DNA of 64,000 bases from Escherichia coli (lineage in GTDB: Bacteria > Pseudomonadota > Gammaproteobacteria > Enterobacterales > Enterobacteriaceae): assembly GCF_044324785.1 (NCBI RefSeq), contig NZ_CP172127.1. One strand, given 5' to 3'. The position numbers and the translations under genes are program-made. Numbering within the stretch: the first letter of the stretch is position 1; each line of letters opens with the position of its first letter. The notes beneath the pieces were generated by a model. It did not search any database. It saw only the letters and a program-made list of their open reading frames with translations, and had not been told where the DNA came from. Positions 46,142 through 46,278 of the stretch are shown piece after piece.

Positions 46142-46228
46142 ATGACTCACATCGTTCGCTTTATCGGTCTACTACTACTAAACGCATCTTCTTTGCGCGG
46201 TAGACTGGTGAGCGGCATTCAGAATTAA
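46142..46228 (+). CDS. leuL: leu operon leader peptide
   Basis: 28 aa [28 protein letters not shown] with four consecutive CTA Leu codons (cta cta cta cta). Confidence 0.9.
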
Positions 46229-46245
46229 GTCAGCACTCAGTCAAA

Positions 46246-46278
46246 CAAAAAACCCGCGCCATTGCGCGGGTTTTTTTA
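46246..46278 (+). terminator. leu attenuator (rho-independent terminator)
   Basis: cccgcgc-cattg-gcgcggg followed by TTTTTTT, between leuL and leuA. Confidence 0.85.

Follow-up and report, generated by a model that had tools for sequence, protein, structure and literature searches.

The window analysed here is a 64,000-nt stretch of Escherichia coli DNA, the whole of which aligns to K-12 MG1655 (the araD to secA region, in reverse orientation) at ~97.9% identity. Within it the gene order is ilvI-leuO, upstream and on the opposite strand, followed by leuL-leuA-leuB-leuC. The leader lies directly 5′ of leuABCD and is co-oriented with it; leuA (2-isopropylmalate synthase; 46321–47892, + strand) is the first structural gene under the attenuator, and leuB, leuC and leuD follow. 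Because leuO is divergent, there is no + strand gene upstream that a terminator in the leader could serve. The leuO–leuL intergenic stretch from 45500 to 46000 is very AT-rich and, with 13–14 differences per 250 nt, is the most diverged sequence nearby relative to K-12.

The region 46128–46277 (+ strand) matches the Rfam family RF00512 (Leu_leader) over model positions 1–148 of 148, with a score of 143.1 bits and E = 2.2e-31; the match is untruncated, and the gathering score of the family is 50 bits. No other Rfam family, whether riboswitch or T-box, matches at the leader. A 301-nt query spanning the leader matches E. coli strain 7/2 at 100% identity, and in that strain RefSeq annotates both leuL and leuA, the former as ‘leu operon leader peptide’ WP_032141177.1. 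Among 5426 complete E. coli genomes the query occurs as one copy in 5399, and the leader region has no match in the remaining 27, which may be laboratory ara-leu deletion strains; three of the matches sit on records labelled plasmid. Judged by its sequence, 46128–46277 is the leu operon leader, a chromosomal control region of E. coli. This element was already known and had been read correctly in the original prediction as a classical leu attenuation leader, with which the full-length RF00512 match, the 100% leuL identity, the leuABCD context and the 97% identity to K-12 all agree; it is ordinary but for being a minority sequence variant.

The leader-peptide ORF leuL (46142–46228, + strand) is 87 nt long, with 28 codons plus a stop, and runs from an ATG at 46142–46144 to a TAA at 46226–46228 (ATG ACT CAC ATC GTT CGC TTT ATC GGT CTA CTA CTA CTA AAC GCA TCT TCT TTG CGC GGT AGA CTG GTG AGC GGC ATT CAG AAT TAA), giving a peptide of 28 aa. 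A Shine-Dalgarno (SD) motif, GGAG, is found at 46130–46133 (+ strand), 8 nt 5′ of the ATG and inside the 5′ strand of the outer helix described below. A short leader ORF with its own SD and start codon is one of the features that define ribosome-dependent attenuators, and leuL is such an ORF, with translation predicted from these signals. The probable leu promoter occupies 46079–46107 (+ strand), with a −35 element TTGACA at 46079–46084, a 17-nt spacer and a −10 element TAACTC at 46102–46107; because this −10 element is weak, the promoter was not called by a consensus promoter/terminator scanner. Transcription would begin near 46115, ~27 nt 5′ of leuL, so the terminated leader would be ~163 nt long. 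This agrees with the length of ~160 nt that Calvo-laboratory papers of 1979–81 reportedly gave for the leu leader. On the minus strand of the leader region there are only mechanical ORFs of 22–23 aa and no Rfam match.

The control codons of this ORF are four CTA codons in tandem (Leu 10–13; 46169–46180, + strand), that is, codons for the operon’s own amino acid, just as the original prediction had described them. The run CTACTACTACTA is unique in the 64-kb window with both strands counted, and CTA makes up only 62 of the 1607 Leu codons (3.9%) in the 34 window ORFs of at least 300 aa, which gives a chance expectation of ~2e-6 for writing LLLL as four CTA codons. The same bias recurs in 109 Enterobacterales leaders, whose CTN codons with a free third base read CTA in 306 of 327 cases (94%), CTT in 16 and CTC in 5. 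These counts can be set beside published genetics: CUA is described as the Leu codon predicted to be most sensitive to starvation, and a Salmonella leu leader in which CUA was changed to CUG became less sensitive to leucine limitation (Carter et al. 1986, as cited in PMC1183508); the number of Leu codons is also described as affecting leu control (PMC9291695).

Downstream of leuL lies the attenuator itself, an intrinsic terminator at 46247–46277 (+ strand). Its hairpin, AAAAAACCCGCGC/CAUU/GCGCGGGUUUUUU, has a 13-bp stem (46247–46259 with 46264–46276) that includes a 7-bp G/C core, and a CAUU loop; it folds alone at −19.7 kcal/mol and is accompanied by a run of exactly seven T (46271–46277). 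The run ends at 46277, and the leuA ATG begins 44 nt further 3′, at 46321. The strong GC hairpin (46247–46276) and T7 run of the original prediction are thereby located. An intrinsic terminator, another defining feature of the class, stands between leuL and leuA, and the folding model predicts that it ends transcription there. The leu terminator is absent from the calls of the consensus scanner, which is an artefact and no evidence against a terminator; we think that the scanner probably extends the stem through the A6/U6 pairs, leaving no free T tail. An empty output of that terminator scanner should not be taken as the lack of a terminator.

The leader as a whole is strongly structured. Its minimum free energy (MFE) over 46115–46280 is −58.5 kcal/mol as against −34.3 ± 3.2 kcal/mol for 200 dinucleotide shuffles (z = −7.6), none of which is as stable as the real sequence. 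In the ribosome-free MFE, a composite protector is combined with the terminator, in agreement with the Rfam consensus structure. The innermost part of this protector is the probable pause hairpin (46165–46207, + strand), built from CGGUCUACU, the Leu-codon segment, paired with GGUAGACUG, and from an inner stem CGCA/UGCG; the inner pairs join 46165–46173 with 46199–46207 and 46183–46186 with 46194–46197, so that the Leu codons and AACGC are paired with UGCGCGGUAG. Folded alone this hairpin has −12.7 kcal/mol, and it sequesters the segment GCGCGG (46195–46200) whenever the Leu codons are free of a ribosome. A middle protector helix (46152–46159 with 46208–46215, + strand) appears in the MFE, as does a long-range outer helix (+ strand) in which the 5′ strand 46128–46143, which carries the SD and the first two bases of the AUG, pairs with the 3′ strand 46224–46240, which takes in the final sense codon and the stop and extends 12 nt past the latter. 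This outer helix is the counterpart of the outer helix of the Rfam consensus, and it buries both the SD and the start codon.

The segment held by the protector has a second potential partner. The 8-nt sequence TTGCGCGG is a direct repeat, present at 46193–46200 and again in the 3′ arm of the terminator at 46262–46269, and a segment that mimics the terminator 3′ arm in this way is an attenuator signature. The antiterminator (preemptor) would consist of GCGCGG (5′ strand, 46195–46200, + strand) and CCGCGC (3′ strand, 46254–46259, + strand). Because CCGCGC is also the core of the terminator 5′ arm, this pairing is mutually exclusive with the terminator, and because the protector holds the same GCGCGG, it is mutually exclusive with the protector as well.

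Support for the antiterminator depends on how the RNA is folded. When the complete leader was folded with a 28-nt ribosome footprint imposed, the antiterminator was never seen and the terminator had P = 1.000 under every footprint; equilibrium folding was therefore dropped as a test, as the antiterminator cannot show in it. Since the terminator always wins at equilibrium, the antiterminator is supported under a kinetic assumption only, which we modelled by cutting the transcript at 46262, before the terminator 3′ arm, placing a ribosome over the Leu codons and keeping the RNA on its 5′ side from pairing. In this nascent state, with the A site on any of the four CUA codons, the MFE pairs 46195–46200 with 46254–46259. 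These six G-C pairs close a domain of −17.9 to −18.7 kcal/mol, and the structure is common to the window and K-12 alleles. If pairing across the stalled ribosome is allowed, the outer helix beats the antiterminator at three of the four stall positions of the window allele, and the antiterminator forms only with the A site on the second Leu codon; we judge this setting to be less realistic on the assumption that following ribosomes occupy the SD/AUG strand. The corresponding shuffle control gives weak backing: in 68 of 500 dinucleotide-shuffled versions of 46191–46246 the six bases of CCGCGC are likewise all sequestered, which is not significant, and the energy z is only about −1.5. In these models, folding alone is not compelling for the antiterminator. 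Both an antiterminator and a protector, which also belong to the features that define the class, are found in the modelled folds; the check by folding that accompanied the original prediction thus gave mutually exclusive terminator and antiterminator structures, the latter in the nascent state with a stalled ribosome only and never at equilibrium.

To place these features in a comparative frame, species-representative genomes were searched in one scan with the pattern CTNCTNCTNAAYGCNTNNNNNNTGCGCGG, which returned 120 loci. Four of these (L057, L104, L105 and L120) are not leaders but GC-rich or Leptospira coding sequence, and they were left out together with L071, which is cut by a sequence end. 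The comparison set (n = 109) comprises 107 distinct full-length leaders plus those of the window and K-12, which were aligned and each folded singly. Leaders in a leuA-type context were found in Escherichia, Salmonella, Citrobacter, Enterobacter, Klebsiella, Kluyvera, Cedecea, Pantoea, Serratia, Erwinia, Yersinia, Pectobacterium, Dickeya, Brenneria and other genera. Because the pattern fixed three CTN codons, AAYGC, the spacing and TGCGCGG, the conservation of the CTN triplet run, AAYGC, the spacing and GCGCGG is circular; in contrast, the pattern left open the terminator (including its 5′ arm), the outer helix, the ORF and the third positions of the codons, and these are genuine observations.

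All 109 leaders have a leader ORF of 26–28 aa. The terminator is in the MFE of 107 of them, GCGCGG is held in an upstream hairpin in the ribosome-free fold of 107, and the full 6-bp antiterminator forms in the stalled nascent state of 107; single-sequence folding pairs the SD/AUG region with the stop-codon region in 106. The CCCGCGC of the terminator, which includes CCGCGC and is not part of the pattern, is invariant in 109/109, and so are the core pairs of the protector, which are likewise present in every leader. This invariance is why the core protector, antiterminator and terminator pairs carry no covariation signal: RNAalifold on the MAFFT alignment of the 109 sequences gave only two invariant hairpins and 0 compensatory pairs. 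Changes on both sides of a pair are confined to the variable helices, for example at columns 75/111 (UA in 65 leaders, CG in 32) and 123/136 (CG in 36, AU in 34). The covariation scores of the variable parts are 0.154 versus 0.136 ± 0.003 and 0.174 versus 0.122 ± 0.006; both lie above all slid controls, and 0 of 500 shuffles reach either.

The peptides fall into two layouts. In about half, of the Escherichia, Salmonella, Citrobacter, Enterobacter and Klebsiella types, four Leu stand in a row before Asn. In the other, LLGLLLN, of the Yersinia, Serratia, Pantoea, Erwinia and Pectobacterium types, three Leu precede Asn and typically two more Leu codons stand two positions upstream; the spacer before the three Leu is Gly, Ser or Val. 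Across the genera a core GLLL(L)NA..(L/V)RG is kept, and the N- and C-terminal residues vary freely. Two of the leaders, L085 (1276–1459) and L101 (9919–10102), have a damaged terminator 3′ arm with 4 core pairs each (TGTCGC--G in L085 and GCGCGTT-TTTTTGCT in L101); these could be assembly errors or truly weakened attenuators. Over the ~107 Enterobacterales species, the survey describes a leader in which the CUA run, the GCGCGG and CCCGCGC cores and the terminator are rigid and the stretch from protector to terminator drifts.

We conclude that the locus is almost certainly a ribosome-mediated transcription attenuator of the leuLABCD operon, as in the leu operons of E. coli and Salmonella. What was observed here, namely the sequence features, the family membership, the three exclusive pairings, their preservation in ~107 other species and the CUA bias, fits the following course of events. 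RNA polymerase would probably pause once the protector hairpin has been made, while a ribosome starts leuL. A polymerase pause that keeps translation in step with transcription is also a mark of the class, and one is known for leuL from the literature: in PMC9291695 the leuL pause is described as having an in vitro half-life of 28 s, lengthened 1.7-fold by NusA (citing Bartkus et al. 1991), and as lying near the end of leuL, 3′ of the ‘protector’ hairpin, at a site with the consensus G-10/Y-1/G+1. A candidate for this site is U46209, the only match to that consensus 3′ of the hairpin that is common to the window and K-12 alleles.

If leucine is plentiful, the ribosome would cross the four CUA codons and reach the stop codon. 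Behind it, or on RNA free of ribosomes, the Leu-codon segment would pair again with GGUAG/UGCG and so hold GCGCGG; with GCGCGG held, the terminator (46247–46276 and U7) would form and transcription would stop before leuA. In the folding model, a ribosome at the stop codon (footprint ~46211–46238) falls short of GCGCGG, the protector re-forms behind it, and the terminator arm is left free. If, however, tRNA-Leu charged for CUA is scarce, the ribosome would stall with CUA in its A site. From the geometry of a ribosome whose leading edge lies at about +12 nt, the stalled footprint should cover the partners of GCGCGG (46172–46173 and 46183–46186) and spare GCGCGG itself. The freed GCGCGG would then pair with CCGCGC (46254–46259) as soon as the terminator 5′ arm is made; this antiterminator would block the terminator, and polymerase would read on into leuA. 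On completed leaders, the helix between the SD/AUG region and the stop-codon region probably shuts off further translation of leuL. A rise in read-through once charged cognate tRNA becomes limiting, a further trait of the class, is known for the K-12 and Salmonella leaders (PMC1183508), and by analogy the window allele would be expected to respond in the same way.

The closest known system is leuL of E. coli K-12 (b0075; RF00512), which shares with the window the locus, gene order, length and register, and has the same four CTA codons, GCGCGG, terminator and T7; relative to K-12, the window leader gains one outer-helix pair, and its protector hairpin is longer by two pairs at the base. The leu leader of Salmonella enterica is the one on which leu attenuation, the pause and the part played by rare CUA codons were elucidated. 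Its architecture is the same and its peptide nearly equal in length (MSHIVRFTGLLLLNAF.VRGR.VGGIQH in leader L067), and the CTA codons are shared and the GCGCGG/CCCGCGC/terminator core is identical, but N-terminal and central peptide residues and many positions in the variable 3′ half differ. Leader L054 is a version with three Leu, and S. enterica subsp. diarizonae has three consecutive CTA codons, not four. The trpL, hisL, pheL, thrL, ilvL and ivbL leaders are described as sharing the leader ORF, tandem control codons, protector/antiterminator/terminator structures and a coupling pause (PMC1183508; PMC9291695), whereas their sequences and the amino acid that they sense are different; leu is presented as the paradigm for a rare control codon, and thr as using a major codon (PMC1183508). 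In contrast to other enterobacterial attenuators, the stop codon of the window leuL lies 26 nt beyond GCGCGG. This suggests that in the replete state GCGCGG is held by the re-formed protector and not by the footprint of the ribosome.

The original prediction also described the device as an intact textbook example. It is intact, as all structures are kept, but it is not the textbook allele of K-12. Between flanks that are identical to K-12 (46094–46205 and 46238–46297) lies a polymorphic patch (46206–46237, + strand) with six substitutions. Four fall within leuL, as CGA>CTG (R22L; 46206–46207), ATC>ATT (46219, silent) and CAT>AAT (H28N; 46223), and the others are C>T at 46230 and G>T at 46237. 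Of 5426 complete E. coli genomes, 103 (~2%) carry exactly this allele. The change at 46230 replaces an A.C mismatch of the outer helix by an A-U pair. The CGA>CTG change raises the outer pairs of the protector hairpin from 7 to 9 (−12.7 kcal/mol in the window versus −10.8 kcal/mol in K-12) and adds a second match to the G-10/Y-1/G+1 pause consensus, at 46206. The protector state has −38.3 kcal/mol in the window and −35.5 kcal/mol in K-12, and the antiterminator state −18.7 and −19.9 kcal/mol, respectively. From these models the patch appears structurally benign or slightly stabilising, and we take it for normal variation between lineages, in that part of the leader which is under the least constraint. 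Recombination import was considered as the origin of the patch and rejected: the region is 2.1% diverged from K-12 and dense patches of this kind number eight in 31 kb, so that the patch calls for no special event.

Two rival explanations accept the attenuator. One holds that the window carries a minority allele with a measurably different set-point, which predicts that the ~2% of E. coli with this allele have a reduced basal level or need harsher starvation for derepression. In its favour, the protector state is ~3 kcal/mol stronger and the antiterminator ~1 kcal/mol weaker than in K-12, the outer-helix mismatch is repaired at 46230, the protector hairpin is lengthened by CGA>CTG, an additional pause-consensus match appears at 46206, and six changes in 32 nt put the patch in the top 0.4% of 32-nt windows in a 31-kb alignment to K-12. 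However, differences of 1–3 kcal/mol are within the error of the nearest-neighbour model, and both alleles give the same three states. The Leu at position 22 (CTG), ATT and GTC are, moreover, common states in Citrobacter, Salmonella and other genera, which makes the patch look like drift in the least constrained leader part, and the neighbouring leuO–leuL intergenic region is itself ~5% diverged from K-12. We therefore consider a distinct set-point unlikely, and it is similarly doubtful that the allele shifts the leucine threshold or basal leuABCD expression in its lineage; if it did, the window allele would be a natural tuning variant of a textbook attenuator. Such a natural allele could be used to learn how the threshold of an attenuator depends on the variable 3′ half of its leader. 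A second, trans-acting function of the terminated ~160-nt leader RNA or of the 28-aa LeuL peptide, besides attenuation, is far less probable still. There is a precedent in another attenuator, the rnTrpL/peTrpL of Sinorhizobium (PMC6614838; PMC7298713), the leader would be a stable, abundant, terminator-ended RNA, and the peptide core is kept across genera. Yet that conservation is explained by the RNA structures that lie on the same nucleotides, the terminal residues of the peptide are free to vary, and a search of the leuL literature returned no pointer to such a role.

The remaining alternative dispenses with the translating ribosome altogether, and supposes either an unregulated terminator or insulator with an incidental ORF, or a switch driven by a protein or ligand. 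The symmetrical terminator (A6...T7) could act in both directions and always forms at equilibrium. But no co-oriented gene lies upstream to be terminated, and no riboswitch, T-box or other Rfam family is found at the leader. The ORF, the SD, the CUA run and their fixed register to GCGCGG recur in ~107 species, and codon-dependent control is shown by the published genetics of CUA>CUG and of Leu-codon number described in PMC1183508 and PMC9291695. Of all the readings weighed, we give this one the least credence, with only a negligible chance of being right. The preferred reading, a ribosome-mediated leu attenuator, concerns one of the founding examples of transcription attenuation, of which the window copy acts in silico as predicted; the significance is small beyond a correct annotation.

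Other features of the window were noted in passing. At 52983–53991, ~1 kb that K-12 lacks separates the end of sgrR from the sroA/thiB TPP riboswitch; the K-12 sequence is contiguous there. This insert contains an ORF of 189 aa (53217–53786, − strand) that has no Pfam match, bears the RefSeq name ‘T3SS effector EspY2’ in other strains, and occurs in 1046 of the 5426 complete E. coli genomes. A match of 105 bits to the Rfam family PssrA (‘Plasmid-encoded Shigella sRNA A’) at 24538–24627 (− strand) ends in ...AUGUUUGAA; by alignment to K-12 it is chromosomal, at the 3′ end of ftsA and the start of ftsZ, so that the family name is misleading there, and it falls on the 5′ region of ftsZ, which in K-12 is antisense to StfZ. 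Further Rfam matches above the gathering score are SgrS (51036–51262, − strand, 228 bits), the TPP riboswitch upstream of thiBPQ (54027–54126, + strand, 66 bits), tp2 (6956–7069, + strand), STnc40 (18822–18891, − strand) and naRNA4 (18343–18418, − strand), all of which are expected in this part of the E. coli chromosome.
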